Positions 32,990-48,780 of a DNA stretch of 64,000 bases are shown piece after piece. A program made the position numbers and the translations under genes. Position 1 is the first letter of the stretch, and each line of letters begins with the position of its first letter. The stretch lies in NCBI GenBank assembly GCA_963785725.1, contig CAWAWS010000005.1, positions 128,001-192,000 of the forward strand. Direction: 5' to 3'. The DNA is from an uncultured delta proteobacterium. GTDB lineage: Bacteria; Myxococcota_A; Polyangia; Palsa-1104. The notes under the pieces are model-generated. The model made no database searches. It saw only the letters and a program-made list of their open reading frames with translations, and was not told where the DNA came from.

Positions 32990-33691
32990 TCAGCCGGGCG
33001 GCACGCAGCCGCCGGCGCCGTCGCACATCGTGCCGTTGCCGACGCTGCAGGGCGTGCCCGGCGCCGCCGGCGCGCTGCCGCACGTGTGCGCCGTCGGATC
33101 GCAGGCGCTGACGAGGCAGGGGTTCGACTGCGGCGGGCAGTTGCTGTCCATCAAGCAGCCGACGCAGGTGCCGCTGCCGTCGCAGACGGCGCCGTTGTCG
33201 TCGTCGCACTGGATGCCCGCGGGCGCGTCGACCACCATGCACATGAAGACCGTCGGGTTGCACAAGTTGGCCTGGCAGGCGGTGGTCGTGATGGGCGCGC
33301 AATCGGCCGGGCTGGCGCAGCCGAGGAAGCAAACGCCATGGCCGTCGCACACGTTGCCGCCGCTGTCGCTGCAGGGCGTGCCGGCGACGGCGTCGCTCAG
33401 GCCGCACATGCCGTTGGTCAGGCACGTGCTGCTCTGGCACGCGGTCGGCGGCGTCGGGCAGTCGCTCGGCACGTGGCACATGCCGCCGCCGTCGCCCGGG
33501 CTGGTCATGTCGAGCGGCGCGCCGGGACAGATCATGGCGCTGTCGATGCACGATCCGTTGCACGGCGATTGGCCGCTGAGACACGCGATCTCCGCCGGCG
33601 TCGAGCAGCCGCCGAGCCCGAGGCCGACCGCGGCTGCGACCACGACGCCGACGACCGCGCGCGCGATCATCAACCGCATCGGCGACTGCAT
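32990..33691 (-). CDS. Cys-rich repeat lipoprotein (myxobacterial type)
   Basis: LGLGGC lipobox; three repeats of DC..C..C..C..GTPC..G..CDGxGxC. Confidence 0.75.
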   Translation of the reverse strand: MQSPMRLMIARAVVGVVVAAAVGLGLGGCSTPAEIACLSGQSPCNGSCIDSAMICPGAPLDMTSPGDGGGMCHVPSDCPTPPTACQSSTCLTNGMCGLSDAVAGTPCSDSGGNVCDGHGVCFLGCASPADCAPITTTACQANLCNPTVFMCMVVDAPAGIQCDDDNGAVCDGSGTCVGCLMDSNCPPQSNPCLVSACDPTAHTCGSAPAAPGTPCSVGNGTMCDGAGGCVPPG

Positions 33692-33956: not shown

Positions 33957-34409
33957 ATGATGCGGCATTCGTTCCGAGCGGCGCTCGCAGTGGCAGCGGT
34001 CGCGGCGCTCTCGACGGGCGCGCGGGCCGAGCCGACGGCGATCGGCAAGGCCAAGATCGTGAACGGCAAGGTGACCATCATCCGCGGCGCCAACAAGCTC
34101 GCGGTGAAAGTGGCCGACGCCATCAACGAGCACGATGTCTTCGAGACCGGGCCCGACGGCAGCGTCGGCATCACCTTCACCGACAACACGTCGTTCTCGA
34201 TCGGGCCCAACAGCCGCGTCGCCATCGACACCTACTTCTTCGATCCCAAGAACTTGAAGGGCAACCTCTTGGCGCAGCTCAAGAAGGGGACGATGATGGT
34301 GCGCTCGGGCGAGCTGACGCGACAGCAGCCGGGCTCGGTGCAGGTCAAGACGCCACGAACCGTGCTCGGCGTGCGCGGCACGACCTTCGTCGTCTCTGTT
34401 GACGAATAG
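33957..34409 (+). CDS. Stand-alone periplasmic FecR-domain protein
   Basis: RBS GGGGAG, signal peptide, TGPDGSVGITFTDNTSFSIGPNS, LKKG..SG, VKTPRTVLGVRGT. Confidence 0.88.
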   Translation: MMRHSFRAALAVAAVAALSTGARAEPTAIGKAKIVNGKVTIIRGANKLAVKVADAINEHDVFETGPDGSVGITFTDNTSFSIGPNSRVAIDTYFFDPKNLKGNLLAQLKKGTMMVRSGELTRQQPGSVQVKTPRTVLGVRGTTFVVSVDE

Positions 34410-34414
34410 GCCCT

Positions 34415-37093
34415 GTGCTTCGCGCGCCTCGGTTCGGCTGGCCTCTGTGCATCGGTCTCGGCCTCGCGTGCGCGGTCGCGCGGCTGCCGTCGGCCGGCGC
34501 GCAGTCGGCGGGCTATCAGCTCAACCGCTACGAGCCGACGCCGGCCGGTGATCCGTTTACGCTCGTCGAGTATCCCTGGTACTCGGCGACGCGCTGGTTC
34601 GCCGGCGGGCTGACGCTCGACTATGCGCACCAACTGCTCGTCGCGCACGGCGCGCCGGCGCCGATCGCCAATCAGCTCGACGGACACCTCGACCTCGCCG
34701 GCTCGCTGTTCGATCGCGTCGCCGTGACGCTGAGCGTGCCGATGGTGCTGTACGAAGGCGGCACCGCCTTCAACGGCATCGGGCCGACCGGCGCCGTCGC
34801 CGGCAATCCGCGGCTCGGCGTGCGCGCGCGCCTCGTCGGCCAGCCCGACTCGCGCGTCTCGCTGAGCGCCAGCGCCTATCTCTGGATCCCCGTTGGCGAG
34901 CAGCACAACTTGGCCGGCGACGCGGGCGTGCGCTTCATGCCGCGGCTCAGTCTCGGCGGGCTCATGCTCGCGCAGCTGCCGTGGCAGCTGCGCTGGGCGG
35001 TCAACGCCGCGTTCCTCTATCGCGGGACGGCGCGGGTGGCGACCAGCGTCTCGCCGGTCGGCAACACGGTCGGCTCCGAGCTGCAGCTCTCGGCCGGCCT
35101 CAGCTTCGTGGCGCTCGAGCGCCGCTTCAGCATCGGTCCCGAGGCGCTCTTGTCGATCGCAGTGGCCGGCGATCTGCCGAGCGGACAGCAGCTGGCGACG
35201 CTGGAGCTGCTCGGCGCCGCGCACTATCTGGTGGCCGACACGGTGCAGCTCGGGCTCGGCATCGGCGGCGGCGTGGCCGGTGCGCCCGGTCCGCCCGACC
35301 TCCGCTTCATCTTCTCGCTCGCCTATGCGCCGCTGCGCCGGCGGACCTCGACGTTCGAGCGGGTGGTCGTGCTGCCCGACGAAGACGGTCACGTGGGCGG
35401 CGTCGTCGTCGACGACGGCAAAGCGCGCACGGTGCTCGACCAGGCTTACGCCGCGACGGAGATCGGCAGAAAGGACAAGCGCGCGCGGGCGGTGCAGAGC
35501 TCGGCGCAGGCGCTGCCGCCGGGCGTGGCGGCGTTGGCGCGCGCGCTGCCGCCGTCCGATCGCGACGGCGACGGCATCGTCGACGCGCAGGACGCCTGCC
35601 CCGATCGCGCCGGCGTGGCCTCGGCCGATCCGATTCGCCACGGCTGCCCCAAAGCGTCGGAGAAGGTGGTCGTGCTGCCCGACGCCGATGGACACGTGGG
35701 CGGCGTCGAGGTCGATGACGGCCGGACGAAGACGCTCATCGATCGGCCTTACGCCGGCGTCGAGGTCGGCGCCGACGGCCACGCGCAGGCGGTGGCGCCG
35801 CCGCCGGCCAAAGCCGTGGCTCGCTCGGTCGCGGCCGTCGCCGGCGCGCTGCCGCCGCCCGATGCCGACGACGACGGCGTGCGCGACAACGAGGACGCCT
35901 GCCCCGACCGCGCCGGCGTCGCCTCCGACGATCCCTTGCGCAACGGCTGCCCGGCGGCGCTCGAGCGGATGGTGGTGCTGCCCGATCCCGATGGGCACGT
36001 CGGCGGCGTCGAGGTCGACGACGGCAAGCGGCGCACGCTCGTCGATCAGCCCTACGCCAGCGCCGAGGTCGGCGGCGATGGCCACGTGCGCGCCGTGCCG
36101 CCTTCGCTGCGGTCGGCGGTCGAGCGCTCGGTGGCGGCCATCGCGCGTACGCTGCCGGCCGCCGACGATGACGCCGACGGCATCGCCGACGCCGACGATG
36201 CCTGCCCGGGTCGCGCCGGCGTCGCCGCGCCCGACGCCCTGCGCAACGGCTGCCCGAGCGTGCGCGAGCGCGTCATCGTCCTGCCCGACGCCGACGGGCA
36301 CGTCGGCGGCGTCGAAGTCGACGATGGCCAGTCGAAGACCGTGCTCGATCGCGCCTACGCGACCGCCGAGGTCGGCGCCGACGGGCGCGCGCAGCTGGCG
36401 CCGACCTCGCCGGTGTACGCCGTGACGCGGTCGATCCGCGCCATCGCCACGACGATGCCGCCGCCCGACCGCGACGACGACGGCGTCGCCGATCAAGACG
36501 ACGCCTGCCCCGATCGCGCCGGCGCGCCCAGCGCCGACTCCCTCCGCAGCGGCTGCCCGCGCACCGTCGAGCAGGTGGTCGTATTGCCCGACGAAGACGG
36601 CCACGTCGGCGGCGTCGAGGTCGATGACGGCCACGGCAAGACGCTGCTCGCCGAGGCCTACGCCACGTCCGAGACCGGCAGCGACGGCCGCGCCCGCGGC
36701 TTGAAGACGCTGCCGGCCGAGGTGGCGAAGACCTTCGCGCAGGCGATGGCCGCGCAGCCGCCGGGCGCGCGCCTCATCATCTACTTCGACAAGCGCGCCG
36801 AGCCGGTGCGCGACTTGACCGGCCCCATCGCCAACGTCGTCGCCGAGGTCAAGGCGCGCGCCACCTATTCGATCGACGTCGTCGGCCACACCGACGAGCG
36901 CGGCTCGCGCGCCGCCAATCAGCGCATCGGCCTCGAGCGCGCGCAGCTCATCGCCGACCGCCTGATCGCGGCCGGCGTTCCCGTCGAGCGCGTGCACGTC
37001 ATCTCCAAGGGAATGACCGAGCCGTCGGTGTCGGTGAAGAAGAAGAGCGTCGCCGAATTCCGCAACCGCCGCGTCGAAGTCTTCGTTCGTTAG
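34415..37093 (+). CDS. OmpA-family outer-membrane protein: beta-barrel + five 101-aa repeats with TSP3-like Ca-binding motifs + OmpA peptidoglycan-binding domain
   Basis: Signal peptide, amphipathic beta-strands, repeats ExVVVLPDxDGHVGGVEVDDG..DxDxDGxxDxxDACP..GCP, C-terminal GHTDERG..NQRIGLERA..NRRVEV. Confidence 0.88.
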   Translation: MLRAPRFGWPLCIGLGLACAVARLPSAGAQSAGYQLNRYEPTPAGDPFTLVEYPWYSATRWFAGGLTLDYAHQLLVAHGAPAPIANQLDGHLDLAGSLFDRVAVTLSVPMVLYEGGTAFNGIGPTGAVAGNPRLGVRARLVGQPDSRVSLSASAYLWIPVGEQHNLAGDAGVRFMPRLSLGGLMLAQLPWQLRWAVNAAFLYRGTARVATSVSPVGNTVGSELQLSAGLSFVALERRFSIGPEALLSIAVAGDLPSGQQLATLELLGAAHYLVADTVQLGLGIGGGVAGAPGPPDLRFIFSLAYAPLRRRTSTFERVVVLPDEDGHVGGVVVDDGKARTVLDQAYAATEIGRKDKRARAVQSSAQALPPGVAALARALPPSDRDGDGIVDAQDACPDRAGVASADPIRHGCPKASEKVVVLPDADGHVGGVEVDDGRTKTLIDRPYAGVEVGADGHAQAVAPPPAKAVARSVAAVAGALPPPDADDDGVRDNEDACPDRAGVASDDPLRNGCPAALERMVVLPDPDGHVGGVEVDDGKRRTLVDQPYASAEVGGDGHVRAVPPSLRSAVERSVAAIARTLPAADDDADGIADADDACPGRAGVAAPDALRNGCPSVRERVIVLPDADGHVGGVEVDDGQSKTVLDRAYATAEVGADGRAQLAPTSPVYAVTRSIRAIATTMPPPDRDDDGVADQDDACPDRAGAPSADSLRSGCPRTVEQVVVLPDEDGHVGGVEVDDGHGKTLLAEAYATSETGSDGRARGLKTLPAEVAKTFAQAMAAQPPGARLIIYFDKRAEPVRDLTGPIANVVAEVKARATYSIDVVGHTDERGSRAANQRIGLERAQLIADRLIAAGVPVERVHVISKGMTEPSVSVKKKSVAEFRNRRVEVFVR
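35357..36780 (+). repeat. 303-nt (101-aa) coding tandem repeat, 4 full copies + 1 partial
   Basis: Unit starts at 35357, 35660, 35963, 36266 and 36569, an exact 303-nt period. Confidence 0.92.
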
Positions 37094-37097
37094 CGCC

Positions 37098-38504
37098 TTA
37101 GTGGTCGGAGCCGCCTTGCAGCTCGGACAGCCGCGCGTCGTGCTCGAGGAAGCGGTCGGCGAGCGCCTTGACGAACTGCCCCAAGAACGAGCTGCGCACC
37201 AGCTCCTCCAGCGCGTGACGCTCGACGACGACGGCGCTGACCTCGTCGATGGCGATGACGCTGGCCGAGCGCGGCGCGTCGGCGAAGATGGCCGTCTCGC
37301 CGAACACCTGCCCCGCTTCCAGCGTTCGCACCGTCACCGTGCGCGTCGGATCGGCGGCGTCGCGCTTGCGCACCTCGCAGCGGCCGCCGGTGATGATGAA
37401 GGCGGCGCGCGCCGGCTCGCCCTCGGCCACGATCACCTCGCCCGCGTGGAACTTCTGCATCGCGAACCAGTTGCCGCCGCGCAAGAACGCGCGCAGCTCT
37501 TCGGCCAGCTCCTCGACCGTTTGATGACGCTTGTTCGGGTCGGCCTCCATCGCCTTCATGGCGATGCGGCTCAGCTTCGGCGGCGGCTTGATGGCGACGC
37601 CGGTGCTCTCCTCGGGCGGCTTGAGCTGCCGGCGCTGCGCCAGCGGCAGCGCCTCCGGCACCGGGCCCGGATAAGGCGGCGAGCCGGTCAACATCTTGTA
37701 GAGGATGCCGCCGATCGCGAACACGTCGGTGCGCTGATCGATCTGCTGGATGTGACCCCAGGCCTGCTCGGGCGCCATGTACTGCACGGTGCCGATGACG
37801 GTGCCTTCGGGATCGGCGCGGCGCGGAATCTGCGAGCGGTGGCCGGCGCACACGTGCGCGCAGCCCCAGTCCATGACGTAGACCTGACCGAAGCCGCCGA
37901 CCATGATGTTGTCGGGCTTCAAGTCGCGATGAATGATGCCGCGGCTGTGCGCGAAGGCCATGGCGTCGCAGACCTTGACCAGGATCTCGAGCAGCCGCTC
38001 GAGGTCGCGCTGCGTCTTCTGCGCGGCGATGAGGCGCGTCAGCGTCTCGCCGTCGACCAGCTTCATCGTGAAGTAGCTGGGCACGCCGCGCGCGTCGAGC
38101 ACCAGCTCGTGCACGGGGACGATGTTGGGGTGGTCGAGCTGCCCGGTGATGCGCGCCTCGTCGAGAAAGCGCTCTTTGGAGTCCGGCTGCGCCGCCAGCT
38201 CGTTGTCGAGCACCTTCATGGCGATGTGGCGCAAGAGCTCGGTGTCGTAGAGGCGGCGAATCGAGCCCATGCCGCCGCGCGCGATCTCGCCCTCGTCGCG
38301 CAGGCGATCTTTGCCGCGCAAGGACGGCGGCGCCGCGGCCGGCGTCGGCGGCGGACCGGCGCCCTCGGCGCGCTCCGACTCCCAGGTGTCCACCGAGCCT
38401 TCGAACCAGGGGACATCGCTGGCCTCGTCGTCGACGGCGGAGCTGGGCTTGGCGCGCTGCAGACGGCCGACGGCGGTGACCGGATCATCGTGGCTCATAG
38501 ACAC
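37098..38504 (-). CDS. Soluble Hanks-type Ser/Thr kinase with C-terminal cyclic-nucleotide-binding domain
   Basis: ARGGMG, AMKV, HRDLKPDN, DWG, GTVQYMAPE; cNMP domain FHAGEVIVAEGE..FGETAIFADAPRSASV. Confidence 0.92.
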   Translation of the reverse strand: MSMSHDDPVTAVGRLQRAKPSSAVDDEASDVPWFEGSVDTWESERAEGAGPPPTPAAAPPSLRGKDRLRDEGEIARGGMGSIRRLYDTELLRHIAMKVLDNELAAQPDSKERFLDEARITGQLDHPNIVPVHELVLDARGVPSYFTMKLVDGETLTRLIAAQKTQRDLERLLEILVKVCDAMAFAHSRGIIHRDLKPDNIMVGGFGQVYVMDWGCAHVCAGHRSQIPRRADPEGTVIGTVQYMAPEQAWGHIQQIDQRTDVFAIGGILYKMLTGSPPYPGPVPEALPLAQRRQLKPPEESTGVAIKPPPKLSRIAMKAMEADPNKRHQTVEELAEELRAFLRGGNWFAMQKFHAGEVIVAEGEPARAAFIITGGRCEVRKRDAADPTRTVTVRTLEAGQVFGETAIFADAPRSASVIAIDEVSAVVVERHALEELVRSSFLGQFVKALADRFLEHDARLSELQGGSDH

Positions 38505-38628: not shown

Positions 38629-41082
38629 ATGGGCAACCGCCGCGTCTGGCTCGTGCAACTGCCGCTGGTGCTGGTGTGGACGCTGGCGTTCACGATCGCG
38701 CAGCGCGGCGACGAGCGGACGCTGACGAGCCCGCTGCTGCGCGATCGCGTCTATCGGACGCTGCGCATGATGGAGGGCTTCGCCACCGACCTGAAGTTTC
38801 GCCTGCGCGGGCCGCGGCCGCTGACGCCCAAGATCGTGATGGTCGAGATCGACGAAGACGCCATCAACCAAGTCGGCCGCTGGCCCTGGCACCGCGACGC
38901 GATGGCGGTCCTCATTCAGTCGGCGTTCGACGCCGGCGCGCGCGTCGTCGGGCTCGACATCGTCTTCTCCGAGCCCGACGTGCGCGTGCCCGAAGCGGTC
39001 GGTGAGCTCTTGCGCGGGCACGGCCTCGGCGACCAGATCCCGGCGTTCGAGACCGATCTGACGTTACAGCGCATCATCGCGCTCCATCGCGATCGGCTCG
39101 TGCTCGGCTGGATGAGCGACGACGCCTGCGTGCCCGCCTGGGAACATTGCGATCCGATGCTGGCGCTGCCCAAAGGCTTCGAGAAGTTCGCCTACGGCCA
39201 CCTGAGCGGCACGTTTCGTCAGGACGGGACGGCGCTCGTGACCGTCCCCACCATCACCGCCAACATCGACGGCTTCGACGAGGCGGCCGCGCACTCGGGC
39301 TACTTCCAAGGCTGGCCCGATCCCGACGACGTGACGCGCCGGACCTTCTTGGCCGTCACCGCGAACGGGCACCTCTTTCCGTCGCTGCCTCTCGAGATGG
39401 CGCGCGTCGGCCTCGACGACGAGCTCGGCGCCGACCTCGACGGCCGCGGCGAGATCGCCAGCCTCTCGCTCTTGCGCGCGGGGCGGCGCCTGCCGGTCTC
39501 GAAGCACGGCGTCCTGCCGATCAACTTCCTCGGGCCCGGCTATCAAGAAGGCGCGTTTCCGTGGGTGCCGGCGATGCAGCTCATCGGCGACGCCGAGCGC
39601 ATCCAGTTCGTGCGCAAGCACAAGGTGGAGTCGGTGGCGCGCTCGGCGCTGTTTCAGGACGCCTACGTCTTCATCGGCTTGTCGGCGCAGGGTGTGAACG
39701 ATCTGCGTAACTTTCCCTTCGCCTCGCACGGGCCCGGCGTCGAAGGCCACGCGACGGTCTTGGAGAACATCCTGTCGCAGCAGTTCCTGCGCACCGGCGC
39801 CGGGCTCTGCGATGGACGGCTGGTGCTGGCGCTGATGACGCTGGGCGCGCTCCTGTTCGGCTGGGCGATGGTGCGGCTGGCGGCGCTGCCGGCGCTCTTG
39901 CTGTCGGTCGCGGTCATCGGTGCGCTGGCGGTCGTGGACGTGGCGCTGTTCAGCCGGCGCAACATCGATCTCGACTCCGTCTTCCTCTTCGGCGAGCTGA
40001 CGACGCTCTTCGTGGCGACGCTGGCGGTGAAGTACGTCCAAGAGGAGCGCGGCAAGCAGCTCATCCGCGGCACCTTCTCGAAGTACCTCGCGCCCGCCGT
40101 CGTCGACGAGATGCTCAAGGACCCGGGCAACGTCAAGCTGGGCGGCGAGACGCGCAAGCTGACCATCATGATGTCCGATCTGCGCGGCTTCACCGCCACC
40201 GCCGAGCGCCTGCGGCCGGAACAGGTGCTGGGCCTGCTCAACAATTACTTGGGGACGATGGCGGACATCATCGTCGACCATCAAGGCACGATCGACGAGT
40301 TCATCGGCGACGCCATCCTCGTCATCTTCGGTGCGCCGCTGGCGCGCGCCGACGACGCGCGCCGCGCCGTGGCCTGCGCGGTGGCGATGCAGCGGGCGAT
40401 GAAGGGCATCAACGAGCACAACGCGCGGCTCGGGCTGCCGGCGATCGAGATGGGCGTCGCGCTCAACACCGGCGAGGTCATCGTCGGCAACATCGGCTCG
40501 CAGCAGCACATCAAGTACGGCGTCGTCGGCAGCCACGTGAACCTGACGGCGCGCATCGAGTCCAACACCGTCGGCGGGCAGGTGCTGATCTCGGGCACGA
40601 CGCTGGCGTTGGCGGGCGCCGACCTCGTGCTCGGCGACCAGCAGCTGATCGTCGCCAAGGGCTTTCCGCAGCCGATTCCGGCGTTCGAGGTCCGTGGCAT
40701 CGGCGGCGAGTACGACCTCATGCTCGACGAGGTGGACCTGGCGCTGGTGACGCTCGAACGCCCGCTCGACGTGCGCTACCGGCTCGTCATGAGCAAGAAC
40801 GAGGAAGGGCCGGAAGCGGTCGGACAGCTGCGCGCGCTGTCCGCCAAGGGCGCCGTGCTCGCCGGCGACGGCGCGCTCGACGCCTTCGCCAACCTCAAGC
40901 TCACGATGGTGGCGCCCACCGGTGTCGCCATCGAGGGCGCGCTCTACGCCAAAGTCGTCGCCGGCGGCGCGGCGTGCACGCTGCGCTTCACGGCGGTGCC
41001 GCCGGAGGTCGAGCGCTTCGTCGCGCAGCAGCTCGAGCCGGCGACGCCCGAGCGTTCGAGCGAGCTGGCCGGACGCTCCTGA
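38629..41082 (+). CDS. CHASE2-domain class III nucleotidyl cyclase (Cya2-like, putative guanylate/adenylate cyclase) with degenerate PilZ-like C-terminus
   Basis: CHASE2 (IDE..GRWPW..GLDIVFSEP, GVEGHA), 3 TM, SDLRGFT, TIDEFIGDA, GNIGS, KYGVVGSHVNLTARIES. Confidence 0.92.
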   Translation: MGNRRVWLVQLPLVLVWTLAFTIAQRGDERTLTSPLLRDRVYRTLRMMEGFATDLKFRLRGPRPLTPKIVMVEIDEDAINQVGRWPWHRDAMAVLIQSAFDAGARVVGLDIVFSEPDVRVPEAVGELLRGHGLGDQIPAFETDLTLQRIIALHRDRLVLGWMSDDACVPAWEHCDPMLALPKGFEKFAYGHLSGTFRQDGTALVTVPTITANIDGFDEAAAHSGYFQGWPDPDDVTRRTFLAVTANGHLFPSLPLEMARVGLDDELGADLDGRGEIASLSLLRAGRRLPVSKHGVLPINFLGPGYQEGAFPWVPAMQLIGDAERIQFVRKHKVESVARSALFQDAYVFIGLSAQGVNDLRNFPFASHGPGVEGHATVLENILSQQFLRTGAGLCDGRLVLALMTLGALLFGWAMVRLAALPALLLSVAVIGALAVVDVALFSRRNIDLDSVFLFGELTTLFVATLAVKYVQEERGKQLIRGTFSKYLAPAVVDEMLKDPGNVKLGGETRKLTIMMSDLRGFTATAERLRPEQVLGLLNNYLGTMADIIVDHQGTIDEFIGDAILVIFGAPLARADDARRAVACAVAMQRAMKGINEHNARLGLPAIEMGVALNTGEVIVGNIGSQQHIKYGVVGSHVNLTARIESNTVGGQVLISGTTLALAGADLVLGDQQLIVAKGFPQPIPAFEVRGIGGEYDLMLDEVDLALVTLERPLDVRYRLVMSKNEEGPEAVGQLRALSAKGAVLAGDGALDAFANLKLTMVAPTGVAIEGALYAKVVAGGAACTLRFTAVPPEVERFVAQQLEPATPERSSELAGRS

Positions 41083-41101: not shown

Positions 41102-41975
41102 TCAGCGGCGAACGAAGCGGCCGAGCGACGGCTGCCACACCTCGACGGCGCCCTCGACGGCGATGGCGACGTTGGCGCAGCCGGCGGCGTGACGCGCGAA
41201 CGCGTCTTCGATGAGCCGATCCGACTGCAGCGGACCGTGATGGCCGGCGAGCACGCGCGTCTGCGGATGGCGCCGCGCCAGCTCGGCCGCGTACTCGATC
41301 GAATCCGTGCCCGAAGGTGTGCTGCGCGACGTCGCTGTGGTTGGCGTCGACGATGACGAGCTGCGCGGTCGCGACCACGGCGTCCTCCAGCGCGCGCGTC
41401 GCCGCCGTCGGCTCGTGATCACTCAGGTAGGCGACGGTCGGGCCGTCGGTGACGGCCAGCCGATAGCCGAGCGTGTCGAGGTAGCGCCGGTTGGGCTCGA
41501 GGCCGCTGTAGTGGTGGAGCGCCACGGTCTCGAGCGTCGCGCCCGGCAACGCCACGCTCGCGCCGGCCGCGAGCGCGACGAACGACAGGCGTCGCAGCGT
41601 GCCCAGCGCCAGCACCTCGAGCGGGACGAACGCCGGCGGCGCGTGCCCGGCGGCAATCGTGTCGAGCGCCTCTTGCGGGCCGAGCACCGTCAACTCGAGG
41701 CCGTTGTCGCGGCGCCACATCCACTCGGCGTCCTTGAGCCCTTCCCAATGATCGAGGTGCGCGTGCGTAACGAGCACGTGCAGTCGCTCGATCGCGCGCA
41801 GGCGCTCGTCGCCGGCGAGCGCGGCGGCGAGCGCGCCCAGGCCGCGACCGGCGTCGAAGACGAAGAGGTCGGCGCCGACCGCCAGCGAGTAGCACGACGT
41901 CGCGTTGCCGATCCGCGAATGCCACGTGTTGCGGCCGCCGCGACAACCCCAAATGTGCAGCTGCGTCTCGTTCAC
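41102..41975 (-). CDS. Metallo-beta-lactamase-fold hydrolase, putative cyclic-nucleotide phosphodiesterase (+1 frameshift near 41303)
   Basis: WGCRG, GNATSC, FDAGRG, THAHLDH, YLSDHE, GH; after the shift LAGHHGP..D..EG. Confidence 0.82.
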
Positions 41976-41998
41976 GATGGCGGGCGTGGCCAACGCGC

Positions 41999-42982
41999 TC
42001 AGGCCCAGCCGAGCCGGTTGCGACCGGCGCGCTTGGCGGCGTAAAGGGCTTCGTCGGCGCGCTTCAGGAGCTCGGCGGCGCTCTCGCCGGCGCGGTATTG
42101 CGTGCCGCCCATCGTGGTCGTGATGCGGATGCCGCGGTCGTTGCCGGGATGGGGAAAGCTGCCGATGGCGGCGCGCAGCGTCTCGGCGCGGGTGCGCGCC
42201 TCCGCTTCGTCGAGGTCGGCGAGCAAGAGGATGAACTCGTCGCCGCCGACGCGGCACGGCAAATCGGACTTGCGCACGCCGTCCTGCAAGATGGCGCCGA
42301 CGGCTTTGAGCACGAAGTCGCCGGCGGCGTGACCGAGCGTGTCGTTGACGGGCTTGAAGTGGTCGAGGTCCATCGCGATGAGGACGAGCCCGCCGCCGAT
42401 GGCCCGCGCGCGCTCCATGAAGCCGTGCACCTCGGCGTCGAAGCAGCGGCGGTTGAAGAGGCCGGTGAGCGCGTCGGTGCGCGCCGTCTCCTCCTCTTGC
42501 GTCAGCCGCTTGCGCGTGAACTCGAGGCTCTTGATGGTGTCCTGCAGCTCGACGTTGCGCCGCCGCAGATCGGCGATCAAGTTGCGCTCGGCGTCGACCA
42601 AGAAGGCGCAGGCGCGGCGCAAGAGCGTGAAGATGGCACGCGGATGGGTCGCCAGCAGCGACTGAATGCTCGACTGGTCGACGACCTGCAGGCGCGCCGC
42701 GCTCGTGGCGACGATCGAAATGCTGCGCTGGTGGCCGGGGTTGATGAACGAGAGCTCGCCGAAGTAGCTGCCGGGGCTGTACGTGCGCACGACCTTGCCG
42801 GTGTCGAGGACGGCCTCGGCCTCGCCGGCGACGAGGAAGAACATCGAATCGCCGGGCTCGCCTTGCGTCAGGATGCGCTCGCCGGCCGCGCAGTGGCGCA
42901 GCGCGCCCGCCGCGAAGATGGCGTCGACCTCGTCATCGGTGAAGGCGTGCAACGGGGAATCGGCCGGGAATGCACTACGCAC
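41999..42982 (-). CDS. cNMP-binding domain + coiled coil + GGDEF diguanylate cyclase
   Basis: GERILTQGEPGDSMFF..FGELSF..RS; TDALTGLFNRR, DLDHFKPVNDTLGHAAGD, RKSD I-site, GGDEF. Start is GTG 42982 (extended -10 upstream) or ATG 43021. Confidence 0.92.
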   Translation of the reverse strand: MRSAFPADSPLHAFTDDEVDAIFAAGALRHCAAGERILTQGEPGDSMFFLVAGEAEAVLDTGKVVRTYSPGSYFGELSFINPGHQRSISIVATSAARLQVVDQSSIQSLLATHPRAIFTLLRRACAFLVDAERNLIADLRRRNVELQDTIKSLEFTRKRLTQEEETARTDALTGLFNRRCFDAEVHGFMERARAIGGGLVLIAMDLDHFKPVNDTLGHAAGDFVLKAVGAILQDGVRKSDLPCRVGGDEFILLLADLDEAEARTRAETLRAAIGSFPHPGNDRGIRITTTMGGTQYRAGESAAELLKRADEALYAAKRAGRNRLGWA

Positions 42983-43117
42983 GCGCTCGATTTTAACACC
43001 AATCGCGCGCCGGTGGCTCATCCCGATGGCGCCGGGCCGGGTTTGCCGAGGCGCCATCGCGCCGGGCGCCTGACGGTCTTGCCGTCGGAGCGCACCCGTG
43101 TATACCTTTCGCAAAGC

Positions 43118-43543
43118 ATGGCAGCACTCGGTGAAGTCGGTTCCGTCACGAGCGTGCACTTTCGCGTCAGCACCGCCAATCAGGCCGCTTTCCGCGCGCT
43201 CAGCGGTGACGACAACCCGCTCCATTTCGACGACGCCTTCGCCCGAGCGCGCGGCTTTGCCGGCCCGGTCGTCTATGGTGGGCTCATCGTCGCCGCCATC
43301 TCGCGCCTGCTCGGCAACGAGGTCCCCGGCGCCGGCTGCGTCTGGCACTCGCTCAAGCTCGACTTTCGCGCGCCGCTCTACGTCGACGAGCCGGCCACCG
43401 TGCAGGCGACCTTGACGCACTTTACCGAGGCGCTCGGGCTGTGGCGCCTCGGCCTCGACGTCGCCGTCCCCGGCCGGCGCATCGCCAAGGGCGAGGCCTC
43501 GGCGATGCTGCGCGACACCACCACCCGCGCCACCGCCGAATGA
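43118..43543 (+). CDS. MaoC-like (hotdog) dehydratase
   Basis: FRALSGDDNPLHFD..A..GF.GPVVYG..PG..F.APLY. Confidence 0.88.
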   Translation: MAALGEVGSVTSVHFRVSTANQAAFRALSGDDNPLHFDDAFARARGFAGPVVYGGLIVAAISRLLGNEVPGAGCVWHSLKLDFRAPLYVDEPATVQATLTHFTEALGLWRLGLDVAVPGRRIAKGEASAMLRDTTTRATAE

Positions 43544-44202
43544 AAGCGGTCCTCGTCACCGGCGCCGGCGGCGCCATCGGCTCGGCCATCGCCAGCCTAG
43601 CGCGCGCGCGCGGCTGGGCCGTCATCGCCGCGCAGCGCGATCGAGCGGCGACGCTGCAGCTGCCGCTCGACGAGCCCGACCGCTTCGCCGACGTCTTGGC
43701 CACCGTCGATGCGTCGTTGGATGTGGCGGCGCTGGTGCTGTGCGCGTCGCCGCCGCCGCTGGTGTCGTCGTTCACGAAGACGCCGAGCGACGCGCTCGTG
43801 CAGCAGCTCCAAATCAATGTCGTCGCCGCGCATCGCCTGCTGGCCGAGTGCTGGAAGCGCTTTTTCCGGCCGCGCAAAGGCGGCCACGTCGTCGCCTTCT
43901 CGACGGCGGCGCTGGGTCCGCCGCCGACGCCGCACCTGGTCTCGTACTTGGTCGGCAAGGCGGCGGTCGAGGCGCTGGTCGAGGCGGCGCTCGCCGAGCT
44001 CGGCCCGGCCGGGCTGCGCGGCACGGTCATTCGTCCCGGGTTCACCGAGACGCCGATGCTGCGCGCATTTCCGACGCCCATCCTCGACGCCGCGCGCCAG
44101 TCGACGCGCTTTCTGACGCCGGCCGAGGTCGCGGCGGCCACCGTCGACGCGCTCGACCAACCGCCGGCCGAGCCGCTCCTGCGTAGGATTGAGCTGCCAT
44201 GA
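43540..44202 (+). CDS. Short-chain dehydrogenase/reductase
   Basis: VLVTGAGGAIG, S-T, YLVGK (YxxxK), PGFTETPM. ATGA-coupled on both sides. Confidence 0.85.
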   Translation: MKAVLVTGAGGAIGSAIASLARARGWAVIAAQRDRAATLQLPLDEPDRFADVLATVDASLDVAALVLCASPPPLVSSFTKTPSDALVQQLQINVVAAHRLLAECWKRFFRPRKGGHVVAFSTAALGPPPTPHLVSYLVGKAAVEALVEAALAELGPAGLRGTVIRPGFTETPMLRAFPTPILDAARQSTRFLTPAEVAAATVDALDQPPAEPLLRRIELP

Positions 44203-46073
44203 AGTGGTTACCCGCGCTCCCCAGCCACGACGCCTTCGCCGAGCTCCGCGCGCACACCAATCCGACGACGCGCCTGGCCGCCATCGTTCGCCTCGCCCAC
44301 TTCGATCTCGATTTTCTGCAGACGGCCAAGCTCGATCGCCTGCTGGAAAAGACCGTGCGCGAGCTCGATGGGCCGGCGCCGCTGCCGAATCTGACGCGCG
44401 TGCGGCTGGCCTGGCTGGCCTCCTCCACCGTCGAGCAGCTGCTGCCGGGCGCGCGCATCGCCGGCTTGCGTCGCGGGCTGTATCTCGACATCCATTTGGC
44501 GCCTTACGGCCAATATCAGCAGGCGCTGCTCGCGGACGAAGGCGCGCTCGTCGACTTTCAGCCCGAGGCGGTGTTCATCCAGCTCGCGCCCGAGGACGCG
44601 CTGCCCGAGCTGCCGCTGGCCGCCACCGCCGCCGAGGCCGCCACCGCCGTCGCCGAGCGCGTGGCCGAGCTGACGCAGCTGTGGTCGCGCGCGCGCGAGC
44701 GCCATCGCGCGCTCGTCATCCACGCCACCGTGCCCAACTTGGCCGAGCGCCTCTTCGGCTCGTACGAGCTGCAGATTCCCGGCGCGCGCTCGAGCCTCAT
44801 CGCGCGCCTCAACCGCGCGCTCGTCGACGCGGCGCCGGCGGCCGGCGCGATCGTGTGCGACCTCGACGGCTGGTTCGCGCGCCTCGGCCACGACGCGTTC
44901 GACCCGGTGCGCTGGTTCCAGGCCAAGCAGCTGGTCGCGCCCGCGCTCGGTCCCTTGTTCGGCGAAGAGCTGGCGCGTCTCGTCGCCGCCGCGCGCGGCC
45001 GCTCACGCAAGGCGCTCGTCCTCGATCTCGACAACACGCTGTGGGGCGGCGTGGTCGGCGATGATGGCGTCGACGGCTTGATCCTCGGTCAAGGCGACGC
45101 CGCCGGCGAAGCGTTCGTCGCCTTCCAGCGCTACGTCAAGCAGCTGGCGACGCGCGGCATCGTGCTCGCCGTCTGCTCCAAGAACAACGCCGACACGGCG
45201 TTGGCGCCCTTTGCCCTCCATCGCGAGATGGTCCTGTCGCGCGACGACATCGCCGTCTTCGTCGCCAACTGGACCGACAAGGCGACCAACCTGCGCACCA
45301 TCGCGGCCACGCTCAACCTCGGGCTCGACGCGCTCGTCTTCGTCGACGACAACCCGGTCGAGCGCGATCAGGTGCGGCGCGAGCTGCCCGAGGTCGCGGT
45401 GCCGGAGATGCCCGAGGATCCGGCCTATTTCGTGCGCACGCTCGCCGCCGCCGGCTACTTCGAGACCGTCGCCTTCTCCGCCGAGGATTGGCAGCGCAGC
45501 GAGCAATATCAGACCAACGCCAAGCGCCAGCGACTGCAAGAAGGCAGCTCCGACATGGACGGCTTTCTGCAGAGCCTGGGCATGACGATGGTGACGTCGC
45601 CGGTCGGCGGCAACAACCTGACGCGCGTCGTCCAGCTCATCAACAAGACCAACCAGTTCAACCTGACGACGCGCCGCTACACCGAGGCCGAGGTCGAGGC
45701 CGTCGCCGGCTCGCCCGACCACATCGCGCGCTGCTTTCGCCTGCGCGATCGCTTCGGCGACAACGGCATCATCTCGGTCGTCATCGCGGCGCGCGAGCAC
45801 GACGCCTGGAACATCGAGACCTGGCTCATGAGCTGCCGCGTCCTCGGCCGTAAAGTCGAGCAGGCGGTGCTGGCCGAGCTGGCGCGCGCGGTGCAATCGC
45901 ACGGCGGCCGCGCGCTCGTCGGCCGCTACCTGCCGACAGCCAAGAACGGGCTCGTCGCCAATCACTACCGAGACTTGGGCTTCCAAAAGGCTGACGCGAC
46001 CGATCAGCGCTGGACGCTCGACCTCGACACCTTCGTCCCCGCCCTCCTACCCATCGAGCTCATCCATGACTGA
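44199..46073 (+). CDS. fkbH: FkbH-like HAD-IIIC glyceryl-ACP transferase/phosphatase with C-terminal GNAT-like domain
   Basis: DLDNTLWGG, CSKN, ANW.DK, FVDDNPVER, KTNQFNLTT, DRFGDNG, MSCRVLGR. Confidence 0.92.
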   Translation: MKWLPALPSHDAFAELRAHTNPTTRLAAIVRLAHFDLDFLQTAKLDRLLEKTVRELDGPAPLPNLTRVRLAWLASSTVEQLLPGARIAGLRRGLYLDIHLAPYGQYQQALLADEGALVDFQPEAVFIQLAPEDALPELPLAATAAEAATAVAERVAELTQLWSRARERHRALVIHATVPNLAERLFGSYELQIPGARSSLIARLNRALVDAAPAAGAIVCDLDGWFARLGHDAFDPVRWFQAKQLVAPALGPLFGEELARLVAAARGRSRKALVLDLDNTLWGGVVGDDGVDGLILGQGDAAGEAFVAFQRYVKQLATRGIVLAVCSKNNADTALAPFALHREMVLSRDDIAVFVANWTDKATNLRTIAATLNLGLDALVFVDDNPVERDQVRRELPEVAVPEMPEDPAYFVRTLAAAGYFETVAFSAEDWQRSEQYQTNAKRQRLQEGSSDMDGFLQSLGMTMVTSPVGGNNLTRVVQLINKTNQFNLTTRRYTEAEVEAVAGSPDHIARCFRLRDRFGDNGIISVVIAAREHDAWNIETWLMSCRVLGRKVEQAVLAELARAVQSHGGRALVGRYLPTAKNGLVANHYRDLGFQKADATDQRWTLDLDTFVPALLPIELIHD

Positions 46074-46308
46074 ACCCGAGATTTACGCGGTTTTACAGAC
46101 GCTCTTCCACGACATCTTCGACGACGAGTCGATCACGCTCACGCCCACGACCAGCGCCAAAGACATCGCCGAGTGGGACTCGTTCAACCACGTCAACATC
46201 ATCGTCGGCGCCGAGACCAAGTTCAAAATCAAGTTCACCACGTCGGAGATCGGCGGCCTCAAGAACGTGGGTGACTTCGTGCACCTCATCGCCCGAAAAA
46301 CCGCGTAG
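46066..46308 (+). CDS. Acyl carrier protein
   Basis: 80 aa, acidic, with WDSFNH phosphopantetheine motif. Confidence 0.9.
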   Translation: MTEPEIYAVLQTLFHDIFDDESITLTPTTSAKDIAEWDSFNHVNIIVGAETKFKIKFTTSEIGGLKNVGDFVHLIARKTA

Positions 46309-47801
46309 TGCTCTTCAATTCCTACACCTTCCTGTTCCTGTTTCTGCCGATCACGCTGGCGTTGGTGCTGGGCGCGAGCGCGCTCGGCTTGCGGCGCACG
46401 GCCAAAGTGTCGCTGCTCGTGGCGTCGCTGTTCTTCTACGGCTGGGCCAACCCGCGCTACCTGATCGTGCTCGGCGCGCTCGTCGCCTTCAACTACGGCA
46501 TCTGCCGCCTGCTCATGGCCGACGCCGGCGACGACGGCCGCCGCAAGGCCGTCTTCATCCTCGGCGTCGTCGCCAACGTCGCCACGCTGGCCTACTTCAA
46601 GTACACCAACTTCACCGTCACCACCGTCGACGAGCTCTTCGGCTGGCAGCTGCGGGTGGCGCGCATCGCGCTGCCGCTCGGCCTGTCGTTCATCACGTTC
46701 CAGAAGATCGCGCTCTTGGTCGACGTCTACGATCGCAGCGTCACGTCGTTCGGGCTGCTCGACTACTGCCTGTTCGTGACGTTCTTCCCGCAGCTCATCG
46801 CCGGTCCCATCGTCCATCACCGCGAGGTCTTTCCGCAGCTCGCCGACCCGAAGACGCTGCATTACTCGGCCGACGGCTTCGCGGCCGGCATCGCGCTCTT
46901 TTGCATCGGCTTCTTCAAGAAGGCCATGCTCGCCGACAGCGTCGCGAGCTTGGCCGGCCGCGTCTTCGACGGCGCCGCGCACGGCCAGCACCAAGGCGCG
47001 CCGATGCTCTGGCTCGGCGCCGTCGCCTACACGCTGCAGCTCTATTTCGACTTCTCGGGCTACTGCGACATGGCCATCGGGCTCGGCCGGCTGTTCGGCA
47101 TCCGCCTGCCCATCAACTTCGACTCGCCCTTCAAGGCCACCAACATCATCGACTTCTGGCGTCGCTGGCACATGACGCTGACGCGCTTTTTGACCGCCTG
47201 CATCTACAACCCGATCTTGCTCGCCATCAATCGCCGTCGCGCCGCCCAAGGTCTGTCGAGCGGCCGCCGCGGCATGACGCTGCCGGCGTTTACGCAGCTC
47301 GTGGTCCTGCCGACGATGGTGACGATGTGCATCGCCGGCATTTGGCACGGCGCCGGCTTCCAGTTCGCCGTCTTCGGCGCGCTGCACGGCCTGTACCTCG
47401 TGTGCAACCACGCCTGGCGCACGTTCGGCAAGAAGCGCAAAGCCTCGCCTCGCTTCGACATCCCCAAGACCGCCGGCACCTTCCTGCTCGTGGTCGTGGC
47501 GTTCGTCTTCTTCCGCGCCGACTCGGTGCACACGGCGCTGCGCATGCTCGGCGAGATGACCGGGCTGCACGGTCCCAACCCGCGCCCGCAGCTGACGTCG
47601 ATCGCCGGCACGGTGGTGCTGGCGGCGATCGCCTTCGCCGCGCCCAACTCCAACCGCGTCGTCGACGGCGCGGCCGGCGAGGCGAGCCGCTGGTGGGACT
47701 TCCGCCCGTCGCTGGCGTGGGGCTTGTGCATCGGCGCCATCGCGCTGGCGGCGATGCTGCAGCTCGACGCCTCCACCGAGTTTCTCTACTTCAATTTTTG
47801 A
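46308..47801 (+). CDS. MBOAT family O-acyltransferase (AlgI/DltB-like)
   Basis: MLFNS..FLP, LPLGLSFITFQ, FFPQLIAGPI, QLYFDFSGY, FWRRWH, GIWHGA, C-terminal FLYFNF. Confidence 0.93.
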   Translation: MLFNSYTFLFLFLPITLALVLGASALGLRRTAKVSLLVASLFFYGWANPRYLIVLGALVAFNYGICRLLMADAGDDGRRKAVFILGVVANVATLAYFKYTNFTVTTVDELFGWQLRVARIALPLGLSFITFQKIALLVDVYDRSVTSFGLLDYCLFVTFFPQLIAGPIVHHREVFPQLADPKTLHYSADGFAAGIALFCIGFFKKAMLADSVASLAGRVFDGAAHGQHQGAPMLWLGAVAYTLQLYFDFSGYCDMAIGLGRLFGIRLPINFDSPFKATNIIDFWRRWHMTLTRFLTACIYNPILLAINRRRAAQGLSSGRRGMTLPAFTQLVVLPTMVTMCIAGIWHGAGFQFAVFGALHGLYLVCNHAWRTFGKKRKASPRFDIPKTAGTFLLVVVAFVFFRADSVHTALRMLGEMTGLHGPNPRPQLTSIAGTVVLAAIAFAAPNSNRVVDGAAGEASRWWDFRPSLAWGLCIGAIALAAMLQLDASTEFLYFNF

Positions 47802-48780
47802 GCAGCTTGAGCGCGCTCAGCGCTTGCGCGAACAGCTCGGTGAACGGCGTCGCGTCGTGCCCGTCGATGTGCGTGCCGTCGGGACAGGCGAACGCCTGCA
47901 TCGCCGGGAAGTCTTGAAACGAGAGGCTGGGGAAGGTCTTTTGAATGAGCGCCCAATAGCGGGCATCGGGAAAGCGCTCCTCCTCGGCGGCCAGGACCGC
48001 CTGCGTCGCCAGCATGCGGAAGAAGATGACGTGGCCGCCGCGCGCGGTGATGGCGGCGACCCAGGCTTGCAGCTGGCTCAGGCGCGCGGCCATCTCGGCG
48101 TCGCTGGCGACGGTGCCGTAGTTGCGCAGCGCATCGGCGAAGAAGCGCTTTTTCTCGGCTAGGTCGGCGAGCGCGAAGCTCATCCGCAGCTGCCGCCGCG
48201 CGTCCATGCGGTAATAGGGCACGGGCGGCGCGCGATGGCGCTCGAGCGCGAAATGCGGGATCGAGGCCATGCCGAGCTCGGGCAAGAGGCTCACGAGCCG
48301 GCTCGAGAACCACGTGCGCACCGACGTCTCCACGCCGTCGAGCGGCGCGCGCGCGTGATACTTCTCGACCCACGTGTTGGTGGCGGTGTTGTCGCTGGTG
48401 AAGAGGTCGGCCGGCAGCACCTCGACGACGAGCGTGCCGTGAAACGTCGGATCCTCGGCGAAGTCGCGCAGCATGCCGAGCAGATGGCCGCTGTTGACCG
48501 ACAGCTGAATGAACTCGCGGCCGGGAAAATGGCGCTCGAGCACGTCGAGATCCATGGCCGCTTGCAGGCGCGACGAGCCGACCAGCGCCACCACGCGCGG
48601 ATCTTTGGAGGCGGCCGCGCGCCACACCGACCACAGCCCGTTGCTGTTGGACACCGAGGGGACGAAACCTTTGGCACGCCAGGTCAATTCCCAGCCGGCC
48701 GCCAGCGTCAGCGCCAGCGCCATCCCCAGGAAAAAGCGCCGCGGCCGCACGCCAACCGGCGCTGAAGAAGGTTCGGCCAT
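47791..48780 (-). CDS. SGNH-like (DltD/AlgJ-type) membrane-anchored acyltransferase
   Basis: N-terminal TM, VALVGSSR nucleophile block, C-terminal DGTH (DxxH). Convergent with the MBOAT gene. Confidence 0.7.
   Translation of the reverse strand: MAEPSSAPVGVRPRRFFLGMALALTLAAGWELTWRAKGFVPSVSNSNGLWSVWRAAASKDPRVVALVGSSRLQAAMDLDVLERHFPGREFIQLSVNSGHLLGMLRDFAEDPTFHGTLVVEVLPADLFTSDNTATNTWVEKYHARAPLDGVETSVRTWFSSRLVSLLPELGMASIPHFALERHRAPPVPYYRMDARRQLRMSFALADLAEKKRFFADALRNYGTVASDAEMAARLSQLQAWVAAITARGGHVIFFRMLATQAVLAAEEERFPDARYWALIQKTFPSLSFQDFPAMQAFACPDGTHIDGHDATPFTELFAQALSALKLLKN

Follow-up and report, generated by a model that had tools for sequence, protein, structure and literature searches.

A CHASE2 receptor cyclase with a Glu/Gly base-specifying pair and its conserved cyclic-nucleotide gene cluster in a Myxococcota-type bacterium

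Which purine nucleotide is used by a bacterial receptor cyclase, and are the genes around it equipped to respond to its product? These questions are raised by a locus in a 64,000-nucleotide stretch of DNA from an uncultured delta proteobacterium (Myxococcota_A, Polyangia, Palsa-1104; assembly GCA_963785725.1, contig CAWAWS010000005.1, positions 128,001 to 192,000), hereafter the window, in which an 817-aa open reading frame (ORF) on the forward strand (38629..41082) encodes a CHASE2 receptor class III nucleotidyl cyclase of the Glu/Gly type, that is, of the clade of Synechocystis sp. PCC 6803 Cya2. A first-pass annotation had proposed that its messenger may be cyclic GMP (cGMP). Our reading, held with moderate confidence, is that the receptor cyclase makes cGMP within a conserved gene cluster, in which a Ser/Thr kinase and a GGDEF diguanylate cyclase, each with a cyclic nucleotide-binding (cNMP) domain, would read the nucleotide and a metallo-hydrolase would remove it. 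The domain layout, the residue identities, the register with Cya2 and the gene linkage are direct observations, from which substrate, ligand preference, hydrolase activity and input are inferred. Coordinates are those of the window, and statements attributed to published work are drawn from excerpts of the articles.

Base-specifying residues of the cyclase

The cyclase, all parts of which lie on the forward strand, starts with a CHASE2 extracytoplasmic sensor domain (residues 45-402, 38761..39834; Pfam E 2.7e-44), flanked in the hydropathy profile by hydrophobic segments at residues ~6-24 and 397-443. It is the single CHASE2 match of the source genome, and no relative of this domain was found among PDB sequences. 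The catalytic domain (residues 505-701, 40141..40731), delimited by alignment with Cya2 in both sequence and model, matches the class III family PF00211 (Pfam E 6e-22) and retains the complete catalytic set, comprising the metal-binding Asp517 and Asp561, the transition-state residues Asn638 and Arg642, and the phosphate-binding Lys677.

The motif TIDEFIGDA (40288-40314), in frame within the ORF, carries at the first base-specifying position Glu557 (codon 40297..40299), the counterpart of Cya2 Glu488, where adenylyl cyclases have Lys. The second base-specifying site lies in KYGVVG (40513-40530), also in frame, and consists of Lys629, equivalent by register to Cya2 Lys560, and Gly631, equivalent to Cya2 Gly562 (40513..40521; Gly631 codon 40519-40521). 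Both departures from adenylyl cyclases had been pointed out in the first-pass annotation and are real, as these places read DKF and Y-T in the adenylyl cyclases CyaB and CyaC. Its statement that Cya2, itself a CHASE2 protein, reads TIDEFMGD and KYGVVG is likewise correct according to the alignment with 2W01.

In a phmmer search, this Cya2 structure (2W01) was the best PDB match of the cyclase (E 4e-65, no gaps), followed by its E488K variant (6FHT), which reads DKF, and then by CyaB and CyaC (E 2e-36 and 4e-26). Residues 476-805 were modelled with AlphaFold (63 sequences, pLDDT 88.7), and residues 505-701 of the model superposed on Cya2 436-632 over all 197 positions (54% identity, Z 32.1, rmsd 1.4); Foldseek with the model also ranked 6FHT and 2W01 first. 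In this register, Asp517, Glu557, Asp561, Gly631, Asn638, Arg642 and Lys677 fall on Cya2 positions 448, 488, 492, 562, 569, 573 and 608, in agreement with Table 1 of PMC6005667, from which the Cya2 numbering is taken. The superposition puts Glu557 on Glu488, the purine-pocket residue of Cya2, and the first-pass proposal thus withstands the structural check that could have refuted it, a Glu outside the pocket. Its appeal to a Lys/Glu specificity switch is backed by experiment, since fusions of wild-type Cya2 act specifically on GTP and those of the E488K variant on ATP, with slight conversion of the other nucleotide in each case (PMC5995499). The role of the supporting Lys beside the second base site is described in PMC6005667, where a Glu/Gly cyclase subgroup was already proposed; taken alone, the window cyclase is an ordinary member of that known subgroup.

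The cyclase is not a canonical class III adenylyl cyclase, having Glu/Gly in place of the pair of Lys and Asp/Thr/Ser, nor a eukaryote-type guanylyl cyclase, in which Glu is paired with Cys or Ser at the second site and to whose structures it is 23-25% identical. It has in common with Cya2-type guanylyl cyclases the Glu, the Gly, the supporting Lys, and the CHASE2 domain with transmembrane segments. A homologue search returned 4617 proteins, and among the best 120, the query included, the Glu and Gly pair occurs in 120 of 120 and Lys629 in 117 of 120, with all catalytic residues conserved; the pair is thus no chance occurrence. Ten PF00211 matches are present in the source genome, one Glu/Gly (the window cyclase), seven Lys and two other. 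In a quick tree, which was built without Cya2, with insertions relative to the query dropped and with duplicates, one truncated locus and four divergent rows omitted, the Glu/Gly enzymes form one clade (SH-aLRT 99) apart from the Lys types, with members from Cyanobacteriota, Acidobacteriota, Pseudomonadota, Myxococcota and other phyla. The window cyclase groups there with records labelled Kofleriaceae, Haliangiales and Polyangiaceae. The first-pass annotation had called bacterial cGMP signalling rarely documented, and this enzyme type, a large clade in many phyla, is less rare than that implied. One set of cyclase loci (the cyclase-locus set) was chosen by a Glu-containing pattern, and the Glu count in it is therefore circular and not taken as evidence. 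As a separate observation, in loci L094-L097, L100, L101 and L103, a subclade of the Cya2 clade from the same order, the first base site is occupied by Ala, Gly or Leu and the catalytic Arg follows a Phe; L102, which groups with them, has Glu/Gly/Tyr as in Cya2.

One residue, which the first-pass annotation had not noticed, separates the cyclase from Cya2 in a way that bears on its substrate. Cya2 reads VNLTYR and the window cyclase VNLTAR, with Ala641 (40549..40551) in place of Tyr572, and the enzyme is therefore placed in the wider Glu/Gly clade rather than as a strict Cya2 orthologue. Position 641 is Ala in 104, Gly in 11, Ser in 5 and Tyr in none of the best 120 homologues, and the sole Tyr-bearing row of the tree sits in a separate small subclade. 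Several points weigh here against GTP preference. The Tyr of Cya2 greatly enhances guanylyl cyclase activity, as reported second-hand in PMC4215837; Mycobacterium avium Ma1120 engineered to Glu/Gly, with Ala at the Tyr site, retained a preference for ATP (kcat/Km 1.92 vs 0.29 x 10^6), and addition of the Tyr brought ATP and GTP no further than parity (PMC4215837); and no assayed member of the Ala/Ser/Gly subclade was found in the open-access literature searched. The cyclase might accordingly be dual-specific or ATP-preferring without Tyr572, the cluster running on cyclic AMP (cAMP) or on both nucleotides. This alternative draws further on the report that Cya2 selectivity arises from turnover and not from affinity (PMC4284465), so that it may be sensitive to small changes, and on one locus (L106) where the same CHASE2 and FecR pair is coupled to a Lys/Thr cyclase. 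Against it, the Ma1120 scaffold is distant, being 23% identical to the window cyclase, which is Cya2-like and has the supporting Lys, and the catalytic domain shares 54% identity with Cya2 versus 36% with the nearest solved adenylyl cyclase. Moreover, Glu, supporting Lys and Gly are near-invariant over a large clade whose stem is long and well supported, suggesting selection for a base other than adenine. Eukaryotic guanylyl cyclases also have a small residue at the Tyr site, which counts against this alternative as well. We consider it unlikely; from its residues and model, the cyclase probably prefers GTP, acting as a homodimer in which Glu557 would read guanine N1/N2.

A near-inactive cyclase domain serving mainly as a scaffold, or one whose product is a different cyclic nucleotide, for instance a pyrimidine one as in Pycsar systems, is very improbable. 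In its favour, the Gly of the second base-specifying position can make no polar contact, the same fold is found in pyrimidine cyclases (7R65, 8JSF), and metallo-beta-lactamase (MBL)-fold enzymes, of which the cluster has one, have been tied to Pycsar (PMC9117128). The catalytic residues are nevertheless all conserved, and the pyrimidine cyclases are 14-18% identical to the window cyclase and score far below Cya2 (Z 19.8 for 7R65, 19.4 for 8JSF).

Beyond the catalytic domain, the model shows a C-terminal PilZ-fold domain (residues 700-805, 40726..41043), resembling 3KYF (Z 10.9, rmsd 2.9, 101 aligned) and 5VX6 (Z 10.8), and relatives of the cyclase have Pfam PilZ matches. PilZ domains that bind cyclic di-GMP (c-di-GMP) carry the motifs RxxxR and D/NxSxxG. 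Neither motif was found in the PilZ-fold domain of the cyclase, where Ala occupies the D/N site, and an RxxxR occurs in 3 of 63 aligned relatives; c-di-GMP feedback through this domain was therefore rejected. The C-terminal extension of Cya2 raises activity (PMC5995499), which makes a structural role likely, and the domain is probably structural, without a c-di-GMP feedback site.

Linkage to candidate cGMP readers

In the window, genes for a FecR-domain protein, a TraB/OmpA-like protein and the kinase-cNMP protein, the last divergent from the cyclase, lie upstream, and those for the MBL-fold hydrolase and the cNMP-GGDEF protein lie downstream in convergent orientation. Among 14 orthologous loci, several of which end at a contig edge, an OmpA-like gene is present in 12, FecR in 10, the hydrolase in 10, cNMP-GGDEF in 8 and the kinase in 8, with varying gene order. 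Conserved neighbours with cNMP-binding domains support the claim of the first-pass annotation that this may be a cGMP system, and the missing Tyr572 lowers its certainty; as judged from sequences and models, that claim is supported. In 67 more distant Glu-type loci, the same hydrolase was found in 4 (acidobacterial), the kinase in 1, and some cNMP domain in 26, a count that comes without a background rate.

The kinase-cNMP gene (37098..38504, reverse strand) encodes a Ser/Thr kinase with one C-terminal cNMP domain, whose phosphate-binding cassette (PBC) has Arg-Ser (37274-37263) and whose C-helix reads RFLEHD (37154-37137), with Asp456 as the acid. The kinase domain has DWG instead of DFG, and a GxGxxG-like loop, the Lys, HRD and APE motifs are present. 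Its linkage was followed from the kinase side in 301 genomes of the class, with a Cya2-type match defined as E <= 1e-48 and proximity as within 10 kb. The kinase family occupies 126 places in 89 genomes and the Cya2 clade 51 places in 46; both are present in 35 genomes, the cyclase only in 11, the kinase only in 54 and neither in 201. Twenty-three of the 51 Cya2-clade cyclases lie no more than 10 kb from a kinase-cNMP gene, in 12 genera and 8 families, the source genome included. Of these, 22 were read and all 22 have Glu, with input domains that vary among CHASE2, receiver and none recognised. In equal 1.5-kb flanks, the kinase adjoins 12 of 30 Cya2-type loci; among 60 loci of other cyclases, taken from genomes that carry the kinase, it adjoins 1 (possibly 2). 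When 20 kinase loci were widened to at most 19.5 kb, a cyclase appeared in 6, all Glu-type and none Lys-type, some contigs being shared with the cyclase-locus set.

The cNMP-GGDEF gene (41999..42982, reverse strand) encodes a diguanylate cyclase with a cNMP domain and a GGDEF domain whose active site is intact (GGDEF and RxxD sites). In Xanthomonas campestris XC_0249, cGMP is bound by Asn145 and Glu146 of the C-helix, the latter contacting guanine N1/N2 (PMC3770947). In the window protein, Glu132 of the C-helix motif LVDAE (42601-42587) is invariant in 9 of 9 sequences and lies 56 residues past the PBC Glu, which equals the Glu90-to-Glu146 spacing of XC_0249; the ranges matched by phmmer are of equal length, and the Glu is assigned by this spacing rather than by a residue-level alignment to 5H5O. 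The same site is Ser128 in Escherichia coli CAP, in a register counted gap-free from the PBC Arg (46 residues, the same in CAP), the helix being shifted by one against CAP in the MAFFT alignment. In the kinases, Asp or Glu occupies the C-helix site in 28 of 30 loci, as read by eye, and in an engineered channel a C-helix Asp disfavours cAMP (PMC12662207). Two kinases of one genus (L128, L130) have a PBC with Arg-Ala-Ala and Asn or Ser at the acid site; they are possibly cAMP-type members and offer natural controls. A third Arg-Ala-Ala kinase retains the C-helix Asp. Acidobacterial HisKA-receiver-Glu/Gly cyclases (L015-L023) are flanked by a cNMP-GGDEF gene with Ser at the acid site and by a TPR-cNMP protein with Asp there.

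As a strict marker of cGMP, the C-helix acid was rejected after a control in kinase-bearing genomes without a Cya2-type match, described below; in the source genome, 2 of the 9 other cNMP domains that could be anchored cleanly have the acid too. Several observations weigh against a dedicated cGMP circuit. Relatedness inflates the linkage counts, with 7 of the 12 flank matches from one genus. Of the 89 genomes that carry the kinase, 54 give no Cya2-type match at the threshold of E <= 1e-48. In ten such genomes, 60 cyclase loci were read (of 78 matches), 53 of them Lys and 1 Glu, and eight of the ten carry acid-type kinases; at another locus (L265), an acid-type kinase adjoins a Gln-type cyclase. 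The C-helix acid is a trait of the whole kinase family, XC_0249 Asn145 is Ala in the window cNMP-GGDEF protein, and the seven Lys-type cyclases of the source genome could supply cAMP to the same sensors. Real partner losses occur at L008 (hydrolase and GGDEF) and L105 (GGDEF), despite the DNA being present. Modelling of the cNMP domain of the GGDEF protein with AlphaFold, followed by Foldseek, did not separate cAMP from cGMP binders. Chains of cGMP-dependent protein kinase (PKG) are the top PDB matches of both cNMP domains, to which little weight is given, because tandem domains sum in the score and cAMP-dependent protein kinase follows closely.

It is accordingly conceivable that the cyclase makes cGMP but its neighbours are generic cNMP readers, the cluster being a pool of cyclic-nucleotide genes. 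That would suit a kinase family that 89 of the 301 genomes carry, most of them lacking a Cya2-type partner, as well as the losses at L008 and L105 and PBCs with Arg-Ser in both readers, as in E. coli CAP. The kinase linkage, however, strongly favours cyclases of the Glu type, irrespective of input domain, and the cNMP-GGDEF protein retains the XC_0249-like Glu in every one of the nine sequences; we regard a mere pool as improbable. Under our preferred reading, in which the neighbours read cGMP, the evidence tilts slightly towards cGMP binding to the diguanylate cyclase at its cNMP domain, which has a C-helix continuing into the coiled coil that precedes GGDEF, so that c-di-GMP would rise. More tentatively, cGMP may bind the kinase cNMP domain and alter kinase activity.

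Hydrolase, envelope proteins and flanking genes

The MBL-fold hydrolase gene (41102..41978, reverse strand; HxHxDH at 41765-41748) encodes a candidate cNMP phosphodiesterase of family PF12706, with His/Asp columns (HxHxDH and downstream metal ligands) invariant in 20 aligned sequences. PF12706 includes cNMP phosphodiesterases such as Rv1339 of Mycobacterium tuberculosis and CpdA of Corynebacterium glutamicum (PMC9293780); these atypical class II enzymes, together with Bacillus subtilis YhfI, have the same MBL fold and HxHxDH motif. Against PDB, the hydrolase profile had arylsulfatase 8GYG as its sole match (E 7e-9), with no close solved relative. Two findings count against the assigned role. 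The frame is broken in the assembly by one extra base near 41302, whereas the orthologues are intact, and a hydrolase-first search of 42 genomes of the order found the gene in 6, beside the cyclase in 3 and with no cyclase in the 11.5-16.5 kb examined in the other 3. The extra base is the only gap in 874 bases against the orthologous locus L001, and one short contig of sequencing run X2 (depth 2.7) lacks it; the frameshift is likely an assembly error, a strain-specific break being possible. In L001, frame breaks occur also in its kinase and OmpA-like genes. On balance, we lean slightly towards the hydrolase being the phosphodiesterase that would end the signal.

Two forward-strand genes may concern the input. 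The small FecR-domain protein (33960..34409; Pfam E 9.5e-12), delimited with a 12-orthologue alignment, the longest ORF running from 33828, has a signal-peptide-like N-terminus. The TraB-like outer-membrane protein (34415..37093) consists of a TraB-resembling N-terminal part, 101-aa repeats with TSP3-like motifs (n=4), and a C-terminal OmpA domain recognised by Pfam; four repeats were found by pattern at 317, 418, 620 and 721 and a fifth by eye near 519. Its match to NCBIfam TraB (E 1.8e-20) lies far below the family cut-off; by its NCBIfam name, TraB acts in outer-membrane exchange in myxobacteria. From gene linkage, an envelope cue might reach CHASE2 from the TraB/OmpA-like protein by way of the FecR-like protein, a route that we put forward tentatively. 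At L106:9391-13841, the same FecR gene stands with a closely similar CHASE2 sensor (52% identity over residues 2-648) joined to a Lys/Thr adenylyl-type domain, a natural output-domain swap; none of the hydrolase, kinase and GGDEF partners occurs within the 19 kb examined there. A gene for Cys-rich lipoprotein-like repeats (32990-33691) adjoins FecR and is kept in the two closest relatives only.

Further downstream, 43097-48780 holds a MaoC-like frame recognised by eye, a short-chain dehydrogenase/reductase gene, an FkbH-like gene, an ORF of acyl-carrier size (46066-46308), an MBOAT gene and a possible partner gene. This is likely a cell-surface acylation locus and is not linked to the cyclase in relatives, FkbH and MBOAT flanking genes being found in 0 of the 106 cyclase loci examined. 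The third-position GC (GC3) of five cluster genes is 0.91-0.93 and the GC of the window is even, giving no sign for or against horizontal transfer; a plasmid search gave weak matches only, and the sequencing-run listing had no RNA run among the holders, whose shares are small.

Known systems and significance

The cyclase shares with Cya2 (2W01; E488K 6FHT) the layout of CHASE2, membrane segments and class III domain, a catalytic domain that aligns without gaps, the Glu/Gly pair with its supporting Lys, the metal Asp pair, Asn/Arg and the phosphate Lys. It differs in having Ala for Tyr572, GDA for GDG and a Myxococcota-type host, and in being linked to candidate readers and a candidate phosphodiesterase. 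For Synechocystis, a 2023 review states that the cGMP receptor awaits discovery (PMC10187061).

In Xanthomonas campestris, the guanylyl cyclase XC_0250 is likewise linked to a cNMP-GGDEF protein, XC_0249 (PMC3770947; 5H5O), whose C-helix Glu stands at equal spacing from the PBC Glu, with a His at +8 in both. XC_0250 is a cyclase-TPR protein without the Asn/Arg pair, not a Glu/Gly CHASE2 receptor, and the excerpts of that single study include no kinase or hydrolase. The Sinorhizobium meliloti CyaD1/CyaD2/CyaK-Clr pathway also joins a CHASE2 cyclase and a FecR-domain protein (PMC5498481), and in Rhodospirillum centenum the cGMP of Gcy is also read by a cNMP domain, that of CgrA. Clr and CgrA are CRP transcription factors, whereas the window candidates are a kinase and a diguanylate cyclase. 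Eukaryotic PKG, in which a Ser/Thr kinase is fused to cNMP sensing, is an analogue at most. Its cNMP domains are tandem and N-terminal, the tandem arrangement being visible in the PDB matches, whereas the window kinase is a bacterial Hanks-type kinase with one C-terminal cNMP domain and a CRP-like C-helix, and does not belong to the PKG family.

No description of this cluster, nor of a cGMP-regulated bacterial kinase, was found in the open-access literature searched. The cluster is a variation on known bacterial cGMP modules, and the kinase link is its least precedented part. Few bacterial cGMP systems are documented and the reader of Cya2-type cGMP is an open question (PMC10187061), to which this cluster contributes named candidates for every step of a cGMP pathway. 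Whether the large Ala/Ser/Gly subclade without Tyr is guanylyl-specific decides the annotation of many genes, and a bacterial cGMP-regulated kinase is possible. More speculatively, a cGMP pathway might be widespread in Myxococcota and Acidobacteriota, with Glu/Gly cyclases controlling a Ser/Thr kinase that responds to cGMP, a bacterial PKG analogue combining a Hanks kinase with a CRP-like sensor; of such a pathway the window cluster would be a complete version with envelope input, a phosphodiesterase and a c-di-GMP branch.

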